Positions 37,498 through 48,747 of a stretch of DNA of 50,756 nucleotides are shown here, in pieces; positions within the stretch are counted from its first letter, which is position 1; each line of letters begins with the position of its first letter. The position numbers and the translations under genes were made by a program. The DNA comes from Patescibacteria group bacterium (GTDB lineage: Bacteria; Patescibacteriota; Minisyncoccia; Phycocordibacterales; DATDWN01): contig JAZKJH010000001.1 in assembly GCA_040384485.1 (NCBI GenBank), forward strand, positions 1 through 50,756, in the 5' to 3' direction. Below the pieces are notes generated by a model that saw only the letters and a list, made by a program, of their open reading frames with translations, did no database searches and was not told where the DNA came from.

Positions 37498-40400
37498 TTA
37501 TAGTGCCTTAACTTTATCAATCAAAATGCTTTTTTCACCATTGCGAGTAGAGAAAGTTCCTTTTACAACCACACAACTTTCCTTTACTAGAATATCTTGG
37601 AATTCCTCCAATACTTTTGGGAAGACCACTGCTTCAACTGAGTCAGACATATCGGAGATTTTTAGAAAAATCATTTTGTCTCCCTTTTTAGTCATTATTT
37701 CCCGTATGTCCTCAATGATTCCGCCAAAAACTACAGTCATTTTATCTTTACCAATTTCTTTTATTTTTCTTATGTTTGTGTCGCGTTTTTCAAATTTTTC
37801 TTTAAATGAGTCTAATGGGTGTCCAGAAATATATAAGCCGAGTAATTCTTTTTCCCACATGAGACGGTCAGCGGCATTGTACGAAGGAACTTTTTCAAGA
37901 GTGATTTCTACAACTCTATTTTGTTCTGCAATACCTGCAAACAAAGAAGTCTGGTCACTTTCTTTGGACCGTTCCTCTTTATGATATGTAAGCATTGTAT
38001 CGAGGTTGTGGAGCATAGTCGCACGTCCATCTTCACCAGGTACAAAAGAATCCAATGCTCCAGTTTTTATAAGAGACTCGAGAGATTTTTTGTTCAGATT
38101 TTTATCTTTTATTCTGCTTAGGAAATTTGAAAGGGAAGTAAAAGGTCCATTCTTCTTTCTTTCGTCTATTATGGAAGTTGCAATTCCTTCACCGAAGTTT
38201 TTTATAGTTGTTAGTCCAAACCGAATAGAATCTTTTTGTCCGTCTATTCCTTTTATTACAGTGAATCCCTCAAAAGATAGGTTTACATCAGGTGGAAGAA
38301 CTGGAATATCCATTCTTTTACACTCACTGATTATTTCAGCAATCATATCGGTGTCTCCGGACTCTGCGGTAAGAACAGCTGACATATAAATAGCAGGGAA
38401 GTTAGCCTTCATGTATGCAGTCTGGTAAGCCACCTTTCCATAACTTGCTGCGTGAGCTTTGTTGAAACCGTAACCCTGGAAAGGTTCAAAAAGTTTCCAG
38501 ACCAGCTCCGCTTTTTCTCTCGTCATTCCTCCATGGCTAATACATCCATCCACGAACTTAACATGTTGTTTTGCCATTTCTTCCGGGATTTTTTTACCGA
38601 TAGCTTTTCGGAATTTGTCTACTTCTCCCCAAGTGTAACCCGCCACCTCGATAGCAGTCATCAGCAAGTCATCCTGGTACACCAACACCCCAAATGTTTT
38701 ATCCAAAAAGTTTTTCATTTTCGGGTGCATGTAAGTTATAGGTTTTCTTCCATGCTTTCTTTCTATGTATTCGTTGATGTTATCCATAGGTCCAGGTCGG
38801 TATAGTGCCACCATAACGTTGATGTCGAAAATAACAGTAGGTTTAAGTTCTTTTAGCGCTCTCGTCATTCCGTCACCGTTTAGTTGGAACAAACCTACAG
38901 TTTCTCCCCGAGCCAGCATTTCAAAAGTTTTTTTATCATCTATTGGTACATTTTCTATGTCCACGGTTATTCCATCGAGTTTCTCTGTAATTTTTACTGC
39001 ATCAGCAAGTATGGAAAGGTTTCTGATGCCCAAAAAATCGAACTTTAAAAGTCCCACTCCGTCCTCTCCAACAGAGTTCATGTCGTATTGAGTAATTATT
39101 TTGTTATCACCCTTTGTATCATATTGGAGAGGTACATAATCAGTTAGTGGAGTAGGGGAAATAACAACCCCAGCGGCGTGAACAGAGATGTGCCTCGCAC
39201 AACCTTCTATCTTCTTTGCCATATCCATAATTTTTCGAACATCAGGCTCTTTTTTATACCGGTCCTTTAGTTCAGGAGTTTCTTTCAGTGCTCGTTCTAG
39301 TGTCATTGGGAAACCTTGGGCACCCATCGGGATAAGTTTTGCTATTGAATCACCTAGACTGTATGGAAACCCAAGTGCACGAGTTACGTCTCGCACGGAA
39401 CCACGTGCTGCCATAGTACCGAAGGTACCAATCTGAGCTACCTTGTCTATCCCGTACTTGCTACGAGCATAGTCTATAACCTCATCGCGTCTGTTATCGG
39501 CGTAGTCCATGTCCACATCGGGCGCAGATGGTCGTTCTGGGTTTAGGAATCTTTCAAACGGAAGGTTGTACATCAAAGGATCCACGTTGGTGATGTGAGA
39601 CAGATAAGTAACCAATGAACCTGCCACCGAACCTCTGATGGTGGTTAGAATTCCATTTTTGTGAGCAAAGTCCAAGAGGTCTGACACCACAAGAAAGTAC
39701 GGCGCATAACCTTTTGTTTTTATAACTTCCAGTTCGTAGTTCATTCTTTCAAGAATTTCTGGAGTTCTTTGCAGACCTCTTGTTTCAATTCCTGCTTCAG
39801 TGATGCGTCTTAGTTCGTCATCATATGACAGTCCACTTTCCACTATATAGTTTGGCAAAAACCATTTTCCAATGGAGATTTCTACGTTACACCGGTCAGC
39901 TATTTTTATAGAATTTTCTAGAGCTTCAGGAAGTTTTTTAAAATATTTTTCTGCAGTTTTGTCAGATATAAAAGAAAAATCGTCATCTCCTTCTTCCAGT
40001 TTTTCATCGTTTTGAGATTGGACCGCTACTAATGTGTCTCTGGCAGCCCGGTCCTCTAGGTTTATGTAATACACATCATGAGCAGCGACTAGAGGAATAT
40101 TGTTTTCTTTTGCAAAAGTCACTACTTTTTGCATATTATCTTCGTGACCTTTTATTTCTGGATGGTGAGTTACCTCTAGAAAAAAACGAGGACCATTTTC
40201 AGTTTCCTTAAATGTGTTTTTGTACCAAGCAAGCCTTTCTCCCGCCTGTTCAGTGTGCGCCATTTTAATAGACTGCAGGATATCACTAGAAAACGAAGGA
40301 GCGATAGCAATAATACCCTCGTTATATTTTTCTAACAGCTCGCGGTCTAAACGAGGCTTGTAGTAGAACCCTTCCATGTGAGCAAGAGTCACGAGTTTTA

Positions 40401-40707
40401 TCAGGTTTTTGTAGCCGATATCGTTTTCTGCAAGCAAAACTAGTCTAAAGCGGTCCTTATCTATACTTTGTTTGTCGTGACGAGTTCTGTAGGCAACATA
40501 TGCATCTATTCCAATGATCGGTTTTACTCCTTTCTTTTTACAAGCCTGGTAGAACTCAATAGCTCCATATAAGTTGCAGTTATCAGTGAGAGCCAAGGCG
40601 GGCATATCATACTTTTTTGCCATATCTACCAACTCGTCTATTTTTGGCAGAGCGTTCAGTAGGGAGTAGTTTGAGTGGGTGTGCAAGTGGACGAATTTTG
40701 CGGACAT
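37498..40707 (-). CDS. dnaE: DNA polymerase III alpha subunit
   Basis: FVHLHTHS, RGSVAGS, PDVDMD, KFDFLG, FNKAHA. Start set at ATG 40707. Confidence 0.97.
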   Translation of the reverse strand: MSAKFVHLHTHSNYSLLNALPKIDELVDMAKKYDMPALALTDNCNLYGAIEFYQACKKKGVKPIIGIDAYVAYRTRHDKQSIDKDRFRLVLLAENDIGYKNLIKLVTLAHMEGFYYKPRLDRELLEKYNEGIIAIAPSFSSDILQSIKMAHTEQAGERLAWYKNTFKETENGPRFFLEVTHHPEIKGHEDNMQKVVTFAKENNIPLVAAHDVYYINLEDRAARDTLVAVQSQNDEKLEEGDDDFSFISDKTAEKYFKKLPEALENSIKIADRCNVEISIGKWFLPNYIVESGLSYDDELRRITEAGIETRGLQRTPEILERMNYELEVIKTKGYAPYFLVVSDLLDFAHKNGILTTIRGSVAGSLVTYLSHITNVDPLMYNLPFERFLNPERPSAPDVDMDYADNRRDEVIDYARSKYGIDKVAQIGTFGTMAARGSVRDVTRALGFPYSLGDSIAKLIPMGAQGFPMTLERALKETPELKDRYKKEPDVRKIMDMAKKIEGCARHISVHAAGVVISPTPLTDYVPLQYDTKGDNKIITQYDMNSVGEDGVGLLKFDFLGIRNLSILADAVKITEKLDGITVDIENVPIDDKKTFEMLARGETVGLFQLNGDGMTRALKELKPTVIFDINVMVALYRPGPMDNINEYIERKHGRKPITYMHPKMKNFLDKTFGVLVYQDDLLMTAIEVAGYTWGEVDKFRKAIGKKIPEEMAKQHVKFVDGCISHGGMTREKAELVWKLFEPFQGYGFNKAHAASYGKVAYQTAYMKANFPAIYMSAVLTAESGDTDMIAEIISECKRMDIPVLPPDVNLSFEGFTVIKGIDGQKDSIRFGLTTIKNFGEGIATSIIDERKKNGPFTSLSNFLSRIKDKNLNKKSLESLIKTGALDSFVPGEDGRATMLHNLDTMLTYHKEERSKESDQTSLFAGIAEQNRVVEITLEKVPSYNAADRLMWEKELLGLYISGHPLDSFKEKFEKRDTNIRKIKEIGKDKMTVVFGGIIEDIREIMTKKGDKMIFLKISDMSDSVEAVVFPKVLEEFQDILVKESCVVVKGTFSTRNGEKSILIDKVKAL

Positions 40708-40721
40708 GAGATGATTATAGC

Positions 40722-41318
40722 ATGAAAAAAATAGTGGGTATTGACGAGGTTGGAAGGGGTCCTTTGGCCGGCCCTGTGACGGTGGGGATTGTGGTTTGTG
40801 AGCAAAACATCTACAAAAAACTCCAGAAAAGAGGGGACTTACCAGGTGTTGGGCTGGATAGTAAAAAACTCTCACAGAACGATAGAGAAAAGTATTCGGA
40901 CATGCTAAAAACTATAGATATTAAATACTTGGTAGTAGACATTTCCAATAAACACATAGATTCAAAAGGTATCTCGGTATGTATAAAGAAAGCTATTACT
41001 GATGGACTAAAAAAATTAAAACTAAACCCAAAAGAATGTGAAGTGTTGCTCGACGGCGGATTGAAAGCCCCAACTGAGTTTGTAAAACAAAGGACGATAA
41101 TAAAAGGGGATGAGAAAGAGAAAATAATAGCCTGGGCATCTATATTAGCCAAAGTTCATAGGGACGCTTTGATGGTAAAACTCGACAAAAAGCACCCGGA
41201 ATATGCTTTTCAGTTGAATAAAGGATACGGAACTTTGAAGCACAGAAACGCTATTAAAAAGCATGGTTTATCAGCGGTTCATAGAGGAAGTTTTTGTAGG
41301 TCTGTTTTAGTAAGTTGA
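40722..41318 (+). CDS. rnhB: Ribonuclease HII
   Basis: GIDEVGRGPLAGP, DSKKL, LLDG, IAWASILAKV, KGYGT. Confidence 0.95.
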   Translation: MKKIVGIDEVGRGPLAGPVTVGIVVCEQNIYKKLQKRGDLPGVGLDSKKLSQNDREKYSDMLKTIDIKYLVVDISNKHIDSKGISVCIKKAITDGLKKLKLNPKECEVLLDGGLKAPTEFVKQRTIIKGDEKEKIIAWASILAKVHRDALMVKLDKKHPEYAFQLNKGYGTLKHRNAIKKHGLSAVHRGSFCRSVLVS

Positions 41319-41690: not shown

Positions 41691-42581
41691 ATGGCAAACA
41701 GGCACCTTTCCAGATCCATAGTTTTACAAACTCTCTTTGAGTGGGACTTTGATGACAAAAATTCTACTCCAGTTGAAGATATTTTTAATAGAAATGTAAC
41801 TGAATTCGCACCTGGTCACGGTGATGGGCCTTTTATGCAAACTCTACTTTCTGGAATAATAGAAAAACAGAAAGACATAGACCTGATTATCGAAAAAGCA
41901 GCTCCTGATTGGCCAATAGACAAAATAAGTGTAATGGATAGAAACATCTTAAGATTAGGTCTTTATGAGCTACTTTTTTCAGATAGAAGTCAGGTGCCAC
42001 CAAAAGTTGCTATTAACGAAGCTATTGAACTAGCCAAAGCATTTGGAGGAGAAACTTCTAGTAAGTTTGTTAACGGAGTTTTGGGTGCCGTATACAAAGA
42101 ACTTGGGGAGCCAGGAAAAGAAGAAACTTCAAAACCAAAAAAAAACGATAACAATAAACCTGTTCTGACAGAACATCTAGGTGGGGCGGTTGTGTATGCA
42201 AAAGATGGAGAGGAAATATATCTCGCTTTGGTTCATGATGTATTCGGTAAATGGACTCTTTCAAAAGGGAAAATGGAACCAGGAGAAGACCTAGAGGTTG
42301 GTACAAAAAGAGGCATAAAAGAAGAGTTAGGTTTAGATGTTGAGATAAAAGAAAAGCTTGGAGAAAATGAATACATTGCCTACCACCCAGAAAAAGGTAA
42401 AACTAAAAAGCACGTCGTTTATTATTTAGTAGAATCTCCATTTAAGGATTTAGTAAAAGAAGAAAAGGGGGGCCTAGATGATGCACGATGGTTTAAACTT
42501 CAGGATATATTAGATTTAAATTTTTATAACGACATCCTTCCTTTGGTAACAAAAGCTATAAATATCCTGCTAAAAAAATAA
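41691..42581 (+). CDS. nusB: NusB fused to a C-terminal Nudix domain
   Basis: RHLSRSIVLQTLF, DRNILRL, VAINEAIELAK, FVNGVL; then WTLSKGKMEPGE...RGIKEELGL. Confidence 0.93.
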   Translation: MANRHLSRSIVLQTLFEWDFDDKNSTPVEDIFNRNVTEFAPGHGDGPFMQTLLSGIIEKQKDIDLIIEKAAPDWPIDKISVMDRNILRLGLYELLFSDRSQVPPKVAINEAIELAKAFGGETSSKFVNGVLGAVYKELGEPGKEETSKPKKNDNNKPVLTEHLGGAVVYAKDGEEIYLALVHDVFGKWTLSKGKMEPGEDLEVGTKRGIKEELGLDVEIKEKLGENEYIAYHPEKGKTKKHVVYYLVESPFKDLVKEEKGGLDDARWFKLQDILDLNFYNDILPLVTKAINILLKK

Positions 42582-42593
42582 TTTATACTGACA

Positions 42594-42623
42594 TTGACAT
42601 ACTCTAAAAACTATATATAGTAT
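42594..42623 (+). promoter_or_regulatory. Promoter with overlapping palindrome for the three-gene operon
   Basis: TTGACA 42594-42599; TATAGT 42616-42621 inside palindrome ACTATATATAGT (42610-42621); SD AAGGAG 42647-42652. Confidence 0.6.
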
Positions 42624-42662
42624 TACTTGGCTAGTTTTTTGACAGGAAGGAGTAGTTAGTAA

Positions 42663-43424
42663 ATGACAGAAGAAAGAGAAGAAGTCTTCAGGGGCCACTT
42701 CAATGAATGTTTCATTCATATGAAGGAACGCTTTGAAGCAACTTCAGCGCCGCGTTCCAAGAACAGACTTAAACCTCTTAAACCTCTCATGGATTTTTGT
42801 GGGGTGGAGGAAAACACTGTTCGGAATTGGCTGAGAAAAGAGGATCCGAATATCTGTGGGGAACTGTATGTCAGGGTAACCTGTTTTCTGGACCTTAACG
42901 GATACAAGGTTATCGAGTTCGAACGGTGCGACAAGGGAATTCGAAACTTTGTCGAACTGATCGCCTATCGGGTCATTTCGGTTGAAGATGCTTTGAACAT
43001 ACTTCATATGCCCCGCATCTCTGGTTTATTTGCCATGTTCCGTGGTGACCGAGGTGTCAGTTCGGAAAGGCATGCGAAGATGTGGGACTTTTGGAAGAGT
43101 ACCCGAAACGAGATTTTTCAAAAGAAAAAGATGGCAGCTGAAAAGTATCGTCTCAGTTTTCTTTCCAGAAGCAAGGAAGTAGACAAGCCGATTGAAGAAA
43201 TGGTTCGTGCGATGGCTGAACCAACATCTTCAATCGAATCTCGCCGTACTGCTACTATGTACATCATGTATGGCTTGCGATCGCTACTTGATGAAGGAAT
43301 TTTGAAAAATCTTTCAGCAGAGGAGCTTGGCGACCTGTCCCATGAAGATGTGTTGTGTGTGAGCAGTCTTTCTGCCCACTTCAGCACCCTTGCTTCGGAT
43401 ATTGTCCGGAAAAAGGCGGGATGA
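42663..43424 (+). CDS. Hypothetical protein with two XRE/Cro-like HTH segments
   Basis: LMDFCGVEENTVRNWLR and SVEDALNILHMPRISGLFAMFRG are HTH-like by pattern. Confidence 0.7.
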   Translation: MTEEREEVFRGHFNECFIHMKERFEATSAPRSKNRLKPLKPLMDFCGVEENTVRNWLRKEDPNICGELYVRVTCFLDLNGYKVIEFERCDKGIRNFVELIAYRVISVEDALNILHMPRISGLFAMFRGDRGVSSERHAKMWDFWKSTRNEIFQKKKMAAEKYRLSFLSRSKEVDKPIEEMVRAMAEPTSSIESRRTATMYIMYGLRSLLDEGILKNLSAEELGDLSHEDVLCVSSLSAHFSTLASDIVRKKAG

Positions 43425-43427
43425 TAT

Positions 43428-43694
43428 ATGGCAGACGAGATATACGTCGCCATCGTTCAAAAAGTGTTTCCAGAGGGGAAACATGGCCCATACGCCAAAG
43501 CGCGGTCAGAAGAAGTCGCTGGATCGATTACGTTTTCTCTCGACATTTCGGTGTGGAAAGAAGATCGTACTCCTCAAGAAGGTGACAAAGTTGTTCTAAG
43601 TAAGGTTCGAGGGAAGCGTGCCGGGTGGCGCGCAGAGAGTGGGCGGTTTTTCAAACCGTCCGATGAAAGACAGCAGACAGGAGTCGAGAGATGA
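43428..43694 (+). CDS. Small cold-shock-like OB-fold protein (88 aa)
   Basis: YVAIVQKV / GKHGPY / ITFSLDISVW / PQEGDKVVL / GWRAESGR parallel the five CSD strands (inference). Confidence 0.65.
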   Translation: MADEIYVAIVQKVFPEGKHGPYAKARSEEVAGSITFSLDISVWKEDRTPQEGDKVVLSKVRGKRAGWRAESGRFFKPSDERQQTGVER

Positions 43695-44503
43695 AAGTGT
43701 TGAGAACGGTTACGGTAAAGCTGAGTGATCTAAAAGTAAACCTCTTCGTGCGTAAGTCGCTGGATCAGGACCATGTCCTGCACCTCGCGGAACTCATCGA
43801 AGCAGGCGTTGAGATGAATACTCTCATTCAAGTCACCGAAGACATGAATGTGATTGACGGGCGGCACCGTAAGGAGGCCTATGACCTGGCCAAGAAAACC
43901 GAGGTCAGGGTACAAGTCCTTCGAATGGATGACGAAAGCGAACTCATCGGTTATGCCTACCGGGCAAACACCGGAGTGTCCAAGCTTCCGACTTCGGCGG
44001 ATACCGATCACACGATCATGCTCCTTCTTGAAAAGGGGGAAAGCATGAAGCGTATCGGTGAGCTTCTGGGTTTGCCGACGAGCGTGGCTCGCAAGTACGC
44101 AATGGAAGTCAAGTCGCGTATGGCTCGGGCCAAGTTGCAGCGAGCTGTGGATGCAGTCACGGAGGGTGGTCTAACCACCGTCAAGGCTGCAGAGCAGTAC
44201 GGCGTCGATCTCGACAAACTCAAGGAGTCCTTGTCCGGACGCCGGAAGAAGGGGAAGAAGGGGGTTGCTGAAATCCTCGCCAATCTCGGTCGAAACCAGA
44301 GGTCGCACAGTCAGAAGGTTGCGAATGCTCTTCGCAGCCTTCAGGACAAGTACGAGGATGGGGATGTGGTCGAACGTCAGGTTCGCCAAATTCTTCAGCA
44401 CATCGAGGAAGGAAACGCCCGCTCTGCTCGCAGTTTGACGGAGTGGAAGAAGCGCTTCGATGCCATCACAAATAAGTCAGCGAGTCTGAAGAAGTCCGCT
44501 TAA
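43691..44503 (+). CDS. ParB/Srx N-terminal domain protein with two HTHs
   Basis: VKLSDLKVNLFVR, VIDGRHRKEAY, AYRAN; HTHs SMKRIGELLGLPTSVARKY and LTTVKAAEQYGVDLDKLK; ATGA overlap with the upstream gene. Confidence 0.8.
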   Translation: MKVLRTVTVKLSDLKVNLFVRKSLDQDHVLHLAELIEAGVEMNTLIQVTEDMNVIDGRHRKEAYDLAKKTEVRVQVLRMDDESELIGYAYRANTGVSKLPTSADTDHTIMLLLEKGESMKRIGELLGLPTSVARKYAMEVKSRMARAKLQRAVDAVTEGGLTTVKAAEQYGVDLDKLKESLSGRRKKGKKGVAEILANLGRNQRSHSQKVANALRSLQDKYEDGDVVERQVRQILQHIEEGNARSARSLTEWKKRFDAITNKSASLKKSA

Positions 44504-44556
44504 CTTTTTCAGCAATTATGTTCTTTACCTACTGTATAAGGTACAGTAGAGAGCTT

Positions 44557-44587
44557 AGCCCTGCACGTTTCGTGCAGGGCTTTTTTA
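44557..44587 (+). terminator. Intrinsic terminator of the three-gene operon
   Basis: AGCCCTGCACG-TTT-CGTGCAGGGCT plus T run, preceded by hairpin CTACTGTA/TACAGTAG (44529-44549). Confidence 0.85.
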
Positions 44588-44631
44588 TTGTATAAATCAG
44601 TATTTTGTGGTAGTGTATTGGTAAATATTTT

Positions 44632-45416: not shown

Positions 45417-45821
45417 ATGACTGATTTTCAGATCAAGGCTGTTGTCGCCGGATTTTGTTTCGGTGTTTGGCCACTCATCATGAATAAAAGTGGTTTGAGC
45501 GGAGGCATGAGCTCTGTCGTTCTCACCATTATTGTACTGATGGTGGTAGGCTCAGCGAGTTGGAGTGAGCTCGGAAAGGTTGCAAACGTCAACTGGATTG
45601 TTGTGGTTACTGCGAGCATCATCTCGGGCATCGGCCTACTCATGTTCAATCGCGGGATCGCAATCACTGCGGCACAGGAAGTGAGCGTTTTCTTTCTCAC
45701 GGTTCTGCTGGCTCAGATGCTCGTTCCTGCTCTTTACCACGTTTTTCAAAATGGAATCAGCACTTACAAGTTGATTGGGTTTGGTTGTGCAGCACTGGCA
45801 GCCTACTTTCTCAATAAGTAA
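45417..45821 (+). CDS. Small DMT/EamA-like membrane transporter (single repeat)
   Basis: 134 aa, 4-5 TM helices, KLIGFGCAALAAYFL ending. Confidence 0.7.
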   Translation: MTDFQIKAVVAGFCFGVWPLIMNKSGLSGGMSSVVLTIIVLMVVGSASWSELGKVANVNWIVVVTASIISGIGLLMFNRGIAITAAQEVSVFFLTVLLAQMLVPALYHVFQNGISTYKLIGFGCAALAAYFLNK

Positions 45822-45899: not shown

Positions 45900-48146
45900 A
45901 TGTACCTGAAGAGCATTGAATTAAACGGTTTCAAATCATTCGCAAAAAAAAGTGAATTAACTTTTACTTCAAAGGTTTCTGCTATTGTAGGACCAAACGG
46001 TTCTGGTAAATCCAACGTGGCTGAGGCATTTCGTTTTGTGCTTGGAGAACAGTCTATTAAATCCCTTCGAGGTAAAAAAGGAGAGGATCTTATTTTTAAT
46101 GGAGCGGGGGATTTGCCACGTGCTAACAGGGCTAGTGTAAAAATAGTTTTTGATAACTCCACCAAGTTTTTGCCAATTGATTTTGACACAGTCACATTGG
46201 AACGTATTGTTCATCGAGACTCTGTAAATGAATATTTGATAAACGGGTCTCAAGTGCGACTCAAAGACATTATTGAGCTTCTAGCTTCTGCACACATAGG
46301 TTCATCTGGGCATCATATTATTTCGCAAGGAGAAGCTGATAGAATATTGAACGCAAGTATTAAGGAGAGAAAAGCAATGATAGAGGAGGCTCTTGGTCTT
46401 AAAGTCTACCAATACAAAAAAGTAGAGAGTGAGAAGAAACTTTCCAAAACAAAAGAGAATATTGCTCACGTGGAGTCTCTTAGACGTGAGATAGCCCCAC
46501 ATATCAGGTTTCTTAAAAAACAAGTCGAAAAAGTAGAGAAAGCATTAGAGCTTCGAAAAGAACTAGAGACAGAAGCTTTGGAATATTGCAGAAGAGAAGA
46601 TGAGTATATAAAACTGGAAACAAGCAAGATTGAAGATATTAAAAAACCTTTGTTAGAACAACAACGAGCTCTTGAAGAAGAACTGACTAATGCAAAGAAA
46701 GTTTTGAGTGAAGGAGAGTCGCAAGACAAAAAAAGTGACGAACTACTTTCACTAGAAAGTGCGATACACACTTGTCGAAATGAAAAAGACGCTTTGTTTA
46801 GAGACTTTGGACGAATTGACGGAGAGATATCTTCTTTGATTAGAATGATAGAGAAACAGGAACGGGTCGCGAGTTCACACGAATACAAAACAGTTCCTTT
46901 GGTCTCTGTAGAAGGTGTGAGATCGCAGATCGAAAAGAAGATACAGGAAGTTAGGTATTCTCAGGACTTTTTTGTATTAATAAAAACACTTGATGATGTA
47001 TATCGCTTAGTGAGTGATTTTATTGAACAAAATAAAGACAAGGTAGACATGTCACTTTTGGTTGATGCCCAGAAAGACATTGAAGCACTTCGTGTTTCTA
47101 AGCAGGGTATTGAACAAAAAATACAAATTATTCAAACAAAGGAAAAAGAACTAGAAGTTTCCTATAACAGACTTAAGGAATCAATTGAGAAAGAAAAAGA
47201 TTCAAACAGAGACGCTGAAAAAGCAGTTTTTAGAATAATGACTGAGGCTGGGGAAACTCGAAATAGTTTAAAACTTATCGAAAGTGAAGAAGATCTACTG
47301 CGAATGGTAAAAGAAGATTTTAGAAGAGAGTTAACTGAACTAGGTGTGCTTTTGGGTTCCCATATACTTCAGTATGCTTCACTTACCTTTGATTTTAGCG
47401 AATCGAGAAGTGCCCAGGAAGAAAGGAGAAGGAAACTAGAAAAAATCAAAATTCGCTTGGAGGATTCCGGTGCTGGTTCTGCAGGAGATGTAATGAAAGA
47501 ATATAAAGATGCTACAGAAAGAGATGAATTTTTACAGAAGGAACTAACGGACTTGGACAACTCTGCCAAGTCACTTAACGAGCTTATCCAAGAACTTGAT
47601 CTGAAACTGGGAACAGAATTCCGAAACGGAATAGACAAAATCAATACTCAGTTTAGGGAATACTTTGCGATGATGTTCGGTGGAGGAACAGCAGAATTAT
47701 CTGTTATTAAAACTCAAAAAAGAAAAAAACTCAGCGATGAACTTATGGACGTAGAGGGTAGCGAAGAGTTTATAAGTGACGAACCAGAAGAAGATGGTAT
47801 TGAAATAGAAGTAAACCTGCCAAAGAAAAAAGTAAAAGGACTCATGATGCTTTCTGGAGGAGAAAGAGCCCTGACTTCTATCGCTTTGCTTTTTGCTATA
47901 TCTCAAGTAAACCCACCGCCATTTATCATACTAGATGAAACAGATGCAGCGCTCGACGAAGCTAATTCAAAGAAATATGGAGATATGGTAGAAAATTTAT
48001 CAAAATTTTCTCAACTTATTGTTATTACTCACAACAGAGAAACCATGTCACGAGCGGGGATATTGTACGGCGTTACTATGGGTTCAGGGGGTGGTTCCAA
48101 GTTACTTTCTGTTGCATTCGAGGAAGCAGTTTCGACTGCAAAATAA
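45900..48146 (+). CDS. smc: Short SMC-family ATPase (748 aa)
   Basis: LNGFKSF, GPNGSGKSN, IISQGE, LSGGE, ILDETDAALD, VITHN; near rnc as in rnc-smc loci. Confidence 0.9.
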   Translation: MYLKSIELNGFKSFAKKSELTFTSKVSAIVGPNGSGKSNVAEAFRFVLGEQSIKSLRGKKGEDLIFNGAGDLPRANRASVKIVFDNSTKFLPIDFDTVTLERIVHRDSVNEYLINGSQVRLKDIIELLASAHIGSSGHHIISQGEADRILNASIKERKAMIEEALGLKVYQYKKVESEKKLSKTKENIAHVESLRREIAPHIRFLKKQVEKVEKALELRKELETEALEYCRREDEYIKLETSKIEDIKKPLLEQQRALEEELTNAKKVLSEGESQDKKSDELLSLESAIHTCRNEKDALFRDFGRIDGEISSLIRMIEKQERVASSHEYKTVPLVSVEGVRSQIEKKIQEVRYSQDFFVLIKTLDDVYRLVSDFIEQNKDKVDMSLLVDAQKDIEALRVSKQGIEQKIQIIQTKEKELEVSYNRLKESIEKEKDSNRDAEKAVFRIMTEAGETRNSLKLIESEEDLLRMVKEDFRRELTELGVLLGSHILQYASLTFDFSESRSAQEERRRKLEKIKIRLEDSGAGSAGDVMKEYKDATERDEFLQKELTDLDNSAKSLNELIQELDLKLGTEFRNGIDKINTQFREYFAMMFGGGTAELSVIKTQKRKKLSDELMDVEGSEEFISDEPEEDGIEIEVNLPKKKVKGLMMLSGGERALTSIALLFAISQVNPPPFIILDETDAALDEANSKKYGDMVENLSKFSQLIVITHNRETMSRAGILYGVTMGSGGGSKLLSVAFEEAVSTAK

Positions 48147-48188
48147 AAACACCGCACAGGATTAAACTCCTGTGCGGCGCGTGTCTTT

Positions 48189-48413
48189 TCAGTGCTTCAG
48201 TTTGCAGAAGCAAGAGGGAGGAAAGTGCCGAGGCACTCCCTGCCCGTCGGTGATCGGTAGGTCGCCTGGACCTGGCGAGAGGATGAGCCCCTCGATGTCC
48301 ACTGCGACTACCAAGAGTTCACCCGGTCGTCGCTGACCAATACCAACCTCTCGCATTTGGAGAACCGTATCGCCTGGAGCGATCGGTTCTACCGGCTCAA
48401 CTCGTCGATTCAT
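48189..48413 (-). CDS. Small hypothetical accessory protein (74 aa)
   Basis: AAGGAG at 48424-48419; GC-rich; hairpin CCGCACAGG/CCTGTGCGG downstream; IAPGDTV...LLVVAV beta pattern. Confidence 0.6.
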   Translation of the reverse strand: MNRRVEPVEPIAPGDTVLQMREVGIGQRRPGELLVVAVDIEGLILSPGPGDLPITDGQGVPRHFPPSCFCKLKH

Positions 48414-48534
48414 CTGCTCTCCTTAAATTTTGTCCAATTACAATTATACAATACATGTAGTTATTATGCAAACAAAATATATCCCCCGATTTGACTTTGA
48501 TGCTATCAGAGAATAAACTCCAAAAGGAGGTTGT

Positions 48535-48747
48535 ATGGCTAGTAAAAGGCGACTTCGACGGAGAAGTTGTAAGAACAAGATTCGTCATCATGACCAGACC
48601 AGTGCAGTAAATCATTTGATCGGGCTCGGAATTAAGAGGCAAGGACACCATACATACAAGTGTGGGTTTTGTTCCGGTTGGCATGTTGGCCGTCCAGACA
48701 AGAAAATGCGACAGATTTTGAGTTCAAAAAAACCTAGTGTCAGATGA
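48535..48747 (+). CDS. Small basic Cys/His (Zn-ribbon-like) protein (70 aa)
   Basis: AGGAGG at 48525-48530; SCKNKIRH...YKCGFCSGWHVG. Confidence 0.7.
   Translation: MASKRRLRRRSCKNKIRHHDQTSAVNHLIGLGIKRQGHHTYKCGFCSGWHVGRPDKKMRQILSSKKPSVR

Follow-up and report, generated by a model that had tools for sequence, protein, structure and literature searches.

ParB-type cytidine triphosphate (CTP) switches do far more than segregate chromosomes, and most orphan ParBs are uncharacterised (PMC12704722). Orphan ParB-like proteins carried on mobile elements act as nucleoside triphosphate (NTP)-gated clamps that regulate transcription, some of them together with partners (PMC12704722, PMC12409273, PMC13370423); BisD and HerB/YfjB, for example, combine a GxxR motif and a helix-turn-helix (HTH) with a novel dimerisation or activator domain, and BisD requires a partner protein (PMC12409273, PMC13370423). 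In the KorB-KorA system of the IncP plasmid RK2, a CTP-dependent ParB-like sliding clamp is held by a small HTH repressor. The present work concerns a three-gene cassette, designated ORF1, ORF2 and ORF3 after its open reading frames (ORFs), in a 50,756-nucleotide stretch of DNA from a Patescibacteria group bacterium (assembly GCA_040384485.1, contig JAZKJH010000001.1, positions 1 to 50,756 of the forward strand), the whole of which is referred to as the window.

Judged from sequence data, the cassette is best read as a horizontally transferred accessory operon. About an even chance is given to the fuller proposal that it constitutes a horizontally transferred three-subunit ParB-type nucleotide-gated DNA clamp and regulator, in which the ParB-like protein (ORF3) would work with a tandem-HTH protein (ORF1) and a predicted oligonucleotide/oligosaccharide-binding (OB)-fold protein (ORF2). 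The arrangement of a ParB-like gene in one operon with a dedicated partner on mobile DNA is supported by synteny, gene fusions, signatures of horizontal gene transfer and a phage-borne copy.

The three ORFs all run in the same direction on the forward strand, at 42663-43424 (ORF1, 253 aa), 43428-43694 (ORF2, 88 aa) and 43691-44503 (ORF3, 270 aa), with a 3-nt gap at the ORF1/ORF2 junction and an ATGA overlap at the ORF2/ORF3 junction; the sizes and junctions that an earlier note on this DNA had read from the sequence alone are confirmed by these exact coordinates. That note had treated the three genes as one self-contained operon, and homologues of the trio do occur in synteny in other genomes, where the loci vary. 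Of 32 species-representative genomes found via ORF3, about 28 preserve the order ORF1-ORF2-ORF3, three loci being without ORF2 and one distant locus having ORF3 on its own; complete trios occur in about 50 of 80 metagenome loci found via ORF2; these prevalences are lower bounds, because the locus scans rely on exact peptide patterns. Junctions are mostly -4, -1 or +3 nt, the 4-nt and 1-nt overlaps being typical of translational coupling. Recurrence of the gene order in dozens of independent loci is beyond chance, and all three genes are under purifying selection, with ratios of nonsynonymous to synonymous substitution (dN/dS) of 0.05-0.25. ORF1 and ORF2 also occur as single-protein fusions (L039, L040, P0125, L097, L106, L107), and since they are naturally fused, they can be argued to be subunits of one complex. 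A recurrent fourth small ORF downstream of the trio was considered and proved not to be conserved.

The likeness to ParB lies in ORF3, which is an orphan ParB in the sense of PMC12704722. Its AlphaFold2 (AF2) model reaches a predicted local distance difference test (pLDDT) score of 87.8 and, in Foldseek searches, matches 6sdk, 7bnr, 7ol9 and 8qa9 (E 5e-7 to 1e-5) along some 200 columns, a span that takes in the ParB/Srx N-domain and the HTH domain; the matched structures are those of B. subtilis ParB with CDP, M. xanthus ParB with CTPgS, Noc, and KorB, including the KorB-KorA co-complex. Further matches are PadC, sulfiredoxin and SerK. The modelled protein comprises the N-domain (residues 1-95), HTH units at 102-126 and 163-182, and, at the C-terminus, two long paired helices (192-222 and 228-269), so that the ParB/Srx domain, two HTHs and helical tail proposed at first reading all reappear in the model. 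The sole Pfam match of the window ORF3 is HTH_psq (3.7e-5), with no ParB hit; its family counts over 195 clusters of homologues, 50-61% identical, and a precomputed PF02195 assignment exists for some of them. PDB sequence searches with the ORF1 and ORF3 profiles returned no KorB, KorA, BisD or BisC chains, and for all three families such searches gave HTH-level noise only.

The ParB boxes can be placed. The N-domain of ORF3 bears the motifs NLFVR, DGRHRKEA and AYRAN, and when the ORF3 profile is aligned by hhalign with the Spo0J sequence of the 6sdk chain (E 1.1e-3), G57-R-H-R60-K-E-A63 falls on Box II GERRFRA; G57, R58, H59 and R60 are invariant among 26 ORF3 sequences, and the Box II pattern GxxRxxA is present. 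At the position of Box I (NPxQPR), ORF3 has N17-L-F-V-R21, keeping Asn and Arg and replacing Gln; at the position of Box III (ENLQR), it has A-Y-R-A-N93-T, in which Asn alone is conserved and Glu and Arg are lost. Nucleotide binding by ORF3 is plausible on this pattern of residues, and canonical CTP hydrolysis is doubtful; because the hydrolysis residues are absent, the switch may be slow, use another nucleotide or not cycle. The nucleotide specificity of ParB-like proteins is not predictable from sequence (PMC12704722). The ParA-binding motif LG-R/K-GL is not found in the ORF3 N-terminus (MKVLRTVTVKL).

ORF1 is a new tandem-HTH family, always positioned immediately 5' of ORF2/ORF3. The protein consists of an N-terminal tandem-HTH region (approximately residues 1-160), a variable linker and C-terminal helices. 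No Pfam family is matched by the window ORF1; in its family, 6 of 31 members match HTH_3 (best E 2e-4) and three match HTH_17 (2.5e-6), with weak HTH_23 matches as well. In the AF2 model, the N-terminal 160 residues are helical at pLDDT >90 and form two three-helix HTH-like units. The two HTH segments noticed initially are thereby borne out by the model together with the weak HTH hits of family members, and a fold search of this domain against PDB and BFVD gave no significant match. The family evolves under dN/dS of 0.16-0.22. Four of its residues, H12, C16, C46 and C74, are 87-100% conserved in a family whose mean identity is only about 32%, and for that reason the Cys3-His set is suggested to form a probable metal or redox site. 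Distant homology to ORF1 was also sought among genes 5' of phage ORF3-like genes and of the ORF3-like gene of locus L045; none was found.

ORF2 is a predicted OB-fold protein that, by its sequence, is not a member of the cold-shock family. Modelled within a natural ORF1-ORF2 fusion from a shallow alignment, it forms a five-stranded barrel, whose Foldseek matches comprise IF1 (TM-score 0.62-0.65), phage CspD (0.70), RPA70N, SSB and HIN domains. No Pfam family is matched by any of 27 ORF2 members; at E <= 1, the cold-shock domain CSD (PF00313) matches none of them, and the RNP1/RNP2 motifs are lacking. The first reading of ORF2 as a CSD-like beta barrel accordingly holds for the barrel, which superposes on IF1 and CspD (TM 0.62-0.70), and fails for family membership: compared with the cold-shock, S1 and IF1-type OB proteins, ORF2 lacks a CSD or S1 match, has a signature of its own and occurs as a portable N-terminal module. 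This signature (GKHGPYA, TFSL, VW-E, the invariant basic motif RKKRAGWRA, and a PSDEQ tail) is strongly conserved. ORF2 is a putative adaptor or a subunit that would bind nucleic acids.

The OB domain also has a life outside the cassette. Together with the PSDEQ linker it forms a highly conserved N-terminal module in many proteins of 160-516 aa (P0143-P0293), represented in the metagenome loci L066, L072, L079, L080, L083, L102, L119, L122, L126 and L136; their C-terminal domains are mutually unrelated and without Pfam match, and neither ORF1 nor ORF3 lies nearby. In P0223, a protein of 1590 aa, the OB domain is combined with cadherin-like and Ig domains. From this distribution, the ORF2 OB domain looks like a portable targeting or adaptor domain.

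Several lines of evidence bear on the mobility of the cassette. Its GC content is 0.45-0.56, against 0.33-0.40 outside it, in agreement with the impression at first sight of a GC-richer segment, and the excess sits mostly at third codon positions: GC content at these positions (GC3) is 0.55 for the cassette (0.47 for ORF1, 0.47 for ORF2 and 0.64 for ORF3) versus 0.32 in neighbouring genes (range 0.25-0.37). Averaged over 34 loci, GC3 is 0.12 higher in the cassette than in the neighbouring genes, the difference being above +0.05 in 27 of the 34; in GC-rich hosts, cassette GC3 lies below that of the host. The named hosts are all bacteria of the candidate phyla radiation (CPR), and all are metagenome-assembled genomes (MAGs); a few labels, namely Gammaproteobacteria, Methylomirabilis and Anaplasmataceae, probably result from errors in binning. 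From one locus to another, the flanking genes are for the most part unrelated (mraZ/lysS, queA/SIMPL and rnc/SMC, for example). Within the Zambryskibacteria-like clade, ORF1 is 32-42% and ORF3 52-62% identical, versus 55-82% for housekeeping neighbours, and the cassette copies of a Lloydbacteria genome (L017) and a Nomurabacteria genome (L025), which belong to different candidate phyla, are 72-73% identical. A 107-kb phage contig with a Gp23-type capsid gene carries an ORF1-ORF3 pair at 41% and 45% identity; 14 other viral contigs hold more distant ORF3-like genes in replication/recombination modules, with unrelated partners, and ORF2 was not found in the viral contigs.

The window itself allows the position of the cassette to be compared among close relatives. 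Proteins encoded around it are 55-82% identical to those of three Zambryskibacteria/Parcubacteria MAGs (L001, L014, L032), with which the window has in common the gene order dnaE, rnhB, rpmF, nusB-NUDIX, rnc, SMC-like gene and RNase R gene. On these grounds the window is assigned to a CPR bacterium of Zambryskibacteria-like kind. The three relatives have the trio behind rnc; a position between nusB and rnc, flanked by a NusB-NUDIX fusion upstream and RNase III downstream, is found in this window alone, so that the location given in the earlier note stands and is unique to this genome. Domain searches of the flanks likewise uphold its statement that no ParA or integrase is adjacent: no ParA, integrase or tRNA lies within several kb of the cassette. 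Other forms of mobility were considered and set aside. A transposon is rejected for want of recombinase, terminal repeats and target-site duplications. A circular episome had been suggested by three homologues on contigs of exactly 2268 bp; their layouts differ, and these linear fragments are of equal length by coincidence. An inverted repeat bracketing the cassette (42572-42588 / 44590-44606) is attributed to chance, as flanking repeats are not enriched in 31 loci (inverted repeats significant in 0/31, direct repeats in 1/31).

The cassette has its own expression signals, as the earlier note had recognised from its TTGACA promoter, Shine-Dalgarno sequence and double-hairpin end. The promoter, at 42594-42621 on the forward strand, combines a -35 TTGACA, a 16-nt spacer and a -10 TATAGT and agrees with the consensus at 11 of 12 positions; in alignment with L001, L014 and L032, the -35 box is invariant, and similarity is gone to the left of it. 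A leader element follows at 42639-42655 (forward strand), where a second TTGACA stands immediately 5' of the Shine-Dalgarno sequence GGAAGGAG ahead of the ORF1 ATG, and the leader GTTnTTTGAnAGGAAGGAG is kept in related loci. In 24 of 33 loci an exact TTGACA is present 5' of ORF1; among 32 cassettes, 15 have TTGA[AC]A no more than 35 nt from where ORF1 starts, versus 32 of 453 background genes (7%; binomial p ~1e-9), an approximately 7-fold enrichment of the leader copy. This copy is a candidate operator, loading half-site or RNA leader element. TGACA/TTGACA hexamers also recur at window 42589-42644 and in the upstream regions of L001-L044.

Downstream, a first hairpin at 44529-44549 (CTACTGTA-TAAGG-TACAGTAG, forward strand), present as a single copy in the window against a chance expectation of 0.01, belongs to the minimum-free-energy fold and is followed by an intrinsic terminator at 44557-44581, or 44557-44588 in the wider delimitation (forward strand), identified by a terminator scan, with an 11-bp GC-rich stem and then a T-tract. 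The combined fold of hairpin and terminator has a dG of -35 kcal/mol (z = -6.2; 0 of 200 shuffles as good), and a strong equivalent hairpin stands directly after ORF3 in most related loci. Rfam gave no match at gathering score on the non-coding parts. Two candidate binding sites were examined and rejected: an operator palindrome over the -10 box (ACTATATATAGT; p 0.31, upstream palindromes not being enriched overall), and an internal parS at the end of ORF2 (CGGTTTnnCAAACCG), which is present in 7 of 33 loci and tracks RFFKP codons. Palindromes of the window are single-copy, and only TTGACA-type hexamer repeats are enriched.

By analogy with KorB-KorA, BisD-BisC, Noc and HerB, a mechanism can be proposed from these components. 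On binding nucleotide at the conserved GxxRxxA patch, ORF3 dimers would close around DNA as a clamp; ORF1 would give sequence specificity or hold the clamp at particular sites, among them probably the TTGACA repeats in the promoter and leader of the cassette; ORF2 would serve as an OB-fold adaptor bound to ORF1; and the complex would repress or remodel transcription or DNA access, its own expression included. The gene set and its coherence, the folds, the motifs, purifying selection and the signatures of mobility are demonstrated; complex formation, nucleotide gating, clamp behaviour, autoregulation and biological purpose are what we infer here. The purpose is most plausibly a conflict or mobile-element function, for example silencing or excluding incoming DNA.

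A number of observations count against this interpretation and have to be set beside it. The Box I Gln and the Box III Glu and Arg, the residues of ParB CTP hydrolysis, are absent from ORF3. No parS-like palindrome was found at a conserved position inside cassettes, and upstream palindromes show no significant enrichment across loci. The structural case for ORF2 is of only moderate confidence (pLDDT 65-85, fold matches at E ~3e-3), and an OB domain heading a cadherin-like protein of 1590 aa fits poorly with a pure nucleic-acid-binding role. The cassette holds DNA-binding proteins only, with no payload, and lacks a recombinase, a tRNA target, terminal inverted repeats and target duplications.

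Among the rival explanations, a new anti-phage defence or superinfection exclusion system, in which the clamp and its partners would coat or silence invading DNA or trigger abortive infection and phages would carry the core pair to compete with other phages, concerns purpose and is compatible with the clamp mechanism; we consider it possible, on the unlikely side. Patchy distribution, variable loci and foreign GC3 would suit it, as would the divergence of ORF1, much faster than that of housekeeping neighbours, the phage-borne homologues and a PIN-domain gene adjacent in one locus, and the fusion of the OB domain to many unrelated C-terminal domains recalls polymorphic effector families. However, no PADLOC model rises above noise, no effector such as a nuclease, TIR domain or pore-former is recognisable, and the neighbours are housekeeping genes rather than defence islands. 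A toxin-antitoxin-like addiction module, with one protein (the ParB/Srx or OB protein, for example) being toxic and the HTH protein an autoregulating antitoxin, would explain why a cassette with no cargo persists. The compact, autoregulated-looking operon with an XRE-like HTH gene first and its genes tightly coupled is in keeping with this, as is the signature of horizontal transfer without mobility genes, and, according to the text that cites it in PMC12045711 (Osa, its ref. 113), ParB/Srx-fold proteins can be nucleases or NTPases in plasmid conflicts. Against it, ORF3 is no compact toxin domain but has the complete architecture of a clamp (N-domain, HTH, dimerisation helices), two-gene variants without ORF2 and an ORF3-only variant exist, and no known toxin or antitoxin family is matched; we judge an addiction module improbable.

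Two further readings take the ParB-like fold or the foreign composition as their starting point. ORF3 could be a ParB acting without ParA, loading the nearby SMC or organising the CPR chromosome in some other way, a role in segregation or organisation for which its fold and an SMC-like gene 1.4 kb away, in the window and three related genomes, can be adduced. That proximity, however, is confined to one clade with conserved synteny, all other loci being without SMC; there is no ParA, no N-terminal ParA-binding motif and no parS-like site found in the window; phage copies exist; and patchy distribution, foreign GC3 and fast evolution are unexpected for a core segregation factor, all of which makes a chromosomal role quite improbable. 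Least credence is given to an integrated mini-replicon or a plasmid or prophage remnant, decaying or occasionally active, with ORF1 as a Rep-like, ORF2 as an SSB-like and ORF3 as a partition protein: the foreign composition, the ORF3 relatives in phage replication modules and the SSB and RPA matches of the OB-fold are countered by intact genes under purifying selection in dozens of lineages, by the lack of iterons, terminal or att-like direct repeats, integrase or other phage genes around the cassette, by short contigs that are linear fragments, not circles, and by an ORF1 without Rep family or fold match.

The clamp-and-regulator reading may be extended, very tentatively, into a broader proposal. 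The cassette would then represent a class of nucleotide-gated nucleoprotein switch that has gone unrecognised, is confined to CPR bacteria and their phages and acts in genetic conflict, for instance in silencing or excluding incoming DNA; the clamp would work without canonical CTP hydrolysis and under the control of a redox- or metal-sensing tandem-HTH subunit, and the OB domain would be a new portable targeting module that, elsewhere in CPR genomes, brings a range of mutually unrelated effectors to the same ligand. We regard this as speculative and, taken as a whole, unlikely.

Some observations on individual loci and on the neighbourhood deserve mention in their own right. The one neighbour of conflict type that was seen is a PIN-domain gene of the metagenome contig L013 (1685-2080), encoded directly 3' of the trio and on the other strand. 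In the phage contig L051 (8476-12495), an ORF3-like ParB gene and a 119-aa ORF stand between ORFs of 473 and 433 aa that match consecutive parts of one DNA polymerase family (phrog_17 545-829 and 838-1232), an arrangement reminiscent of free-standing homing elements, with a split polymerase gene and an intervening ParB-like gene. Within the window, the gene upstream of the cassette (41691-42581, 296 aa) encodes NusB with a C-terminal NUDIX hydrolase domain (PF01029 and PF00293), a fusion kept at 79-82% identity in related Zambryskibacteria-like genomes. The SMC-like protein (45900-48146) has 748 aa (755-787 in relatives), which is short compared with typical bacterial SMC, and members of the clade share it at 66-69% identity. 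The gene begins 1.4 kb downstream of the cassette, as the earlier note had it; the functional link hinted at there is rejected, the proximity reflecting clade-specific synteny and other loci having no nearby SMC. Between rnc and this gene, a predicted membrane protein of 134 aa (45417-45821; GC 0.48, GC3 0.55) has no counterpart at that position in L001, L014 and L032, and on account of this absence and its atypical composition it may be a second acquisition beside rnc. Where the SMC-like gene ends, and in the spacer that separates it from the convergently oriented RNase R gene, there is another short GC-rich stretch (48000-48600, GC 0.49-0.52). The listed DnaE ORF (37498-40875, reverse strand) has a GTG start and 1125 aa, about 33 aa more than its 1092-aa orthologues; because the additional N-terminal part runs into the beginning of the RNase HII gene, which is divergent (40722), the true DnaE start probably lies further in.

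To our knowledge, few regulatory, defence or mobile-element systems are recognised in CPR bacteria, and a moving module common to these bacteria and a phage provides a handle on gene flow and conflict in an uncultivated group. The cassette would be a compact, recurrent three-component version of a ParB-type switch, and neither of its two partner families is covered by a Pfam or NCBIfam model. A clamp without the usual hydrolysis residues would offer a natural test of gating without CTP turnover, and the reuse of the OB domain on many unrelated proteins points to a common ligand or machine in CPR cells.

Comparison with catalogued systems agrees with the view taken in the earlier note that no named system has this gene set. 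In PADLOC-DB v2, the best result is PDC-S04 for ORF3 (E 0.014), with none for ORF1 or ORF2 and family-wide hits at the level of noise, so that this check of the DefenseFinder/PADLOC type gave no match above threshold. NCBIfam, PHROGs and Pfam hold nothing significant for ORF1 or ORF2, and literature searches found no description of the gene set. Canonical ParABS is rejected, with no ParA in the window flanks or related loci, no ParA-binding motif and no parS found. The TasParB gene of TIGR-TasA loci (PMC12045711) resembles ORF3 in that it is ParB-like and belongs to a small operon, itself conserved, whose loci vary among CPR-type bacteria and phages; identity with TIGR-Tas/tasParB was rejected, as there is no Nop-domain hit and the window contains no tandem array repeating every 30-40 nt.

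With ParB/Spo0J and Noc, ORF3 has in common the N-domain fold, the HTH arrangement, Box II, the Asn and Arg of Box I and the Asn of Box III. It differs from them in the loss of the Box I Gln and the Box III Glu and Arg and in its C-terminal domain; moreover, the cassette lacks ParA and the ParA-binding motif, no parS or NBS was found, and it is accessory and, by its signatures, horizontally transferred, not core. BisD-BisC of ICEclc and HerB/YfjB of the F-plasmid leading region are ParB-like clamps that activate or reprogramme transcription, and ORF3 is likewise an orphan ParB-like protein with a GxxR motif and an HTH; its partners, however, belong to other families, it is much smaller, and the trio lies outside the backbone of an integrative and conjugative element or plasmid.

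KorB-KorA provides the most detailed parallel. The KorB-KorA structure 8qa9 is among the best fold matches of ORF3 by query TM-score; in both cases a clamp (ParB-like N-domain and HTH) and a separate HTH partner are encoded in one operon associated with mobile DNA, and autoregulation is likely. In contrast, the cassette proteins have no detectable sequence similarity to KorB or KorA; the cassette has no ParA (IncC) and adds an OB-fold subunit, and no OB-site-like palindrome was found; ORF1 is a 253-aa tandem-HTH protein with a Cys/His set, against the 100 aa of KorA; and in ORF3 the C-terminal domain is a helical hairpin and the catalytic CTPase residues are missing. The kinship proposed between the cassette and these partner-assisted ParB-like clamps is one of functional analogy. 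Partner-assisted ParB-like clamps are the known kind to which the cassette is compared, and what it brings that is new are the two partner families without a curated model, the OB subunit and a putative clamp that lacks the hydrolysis residues.

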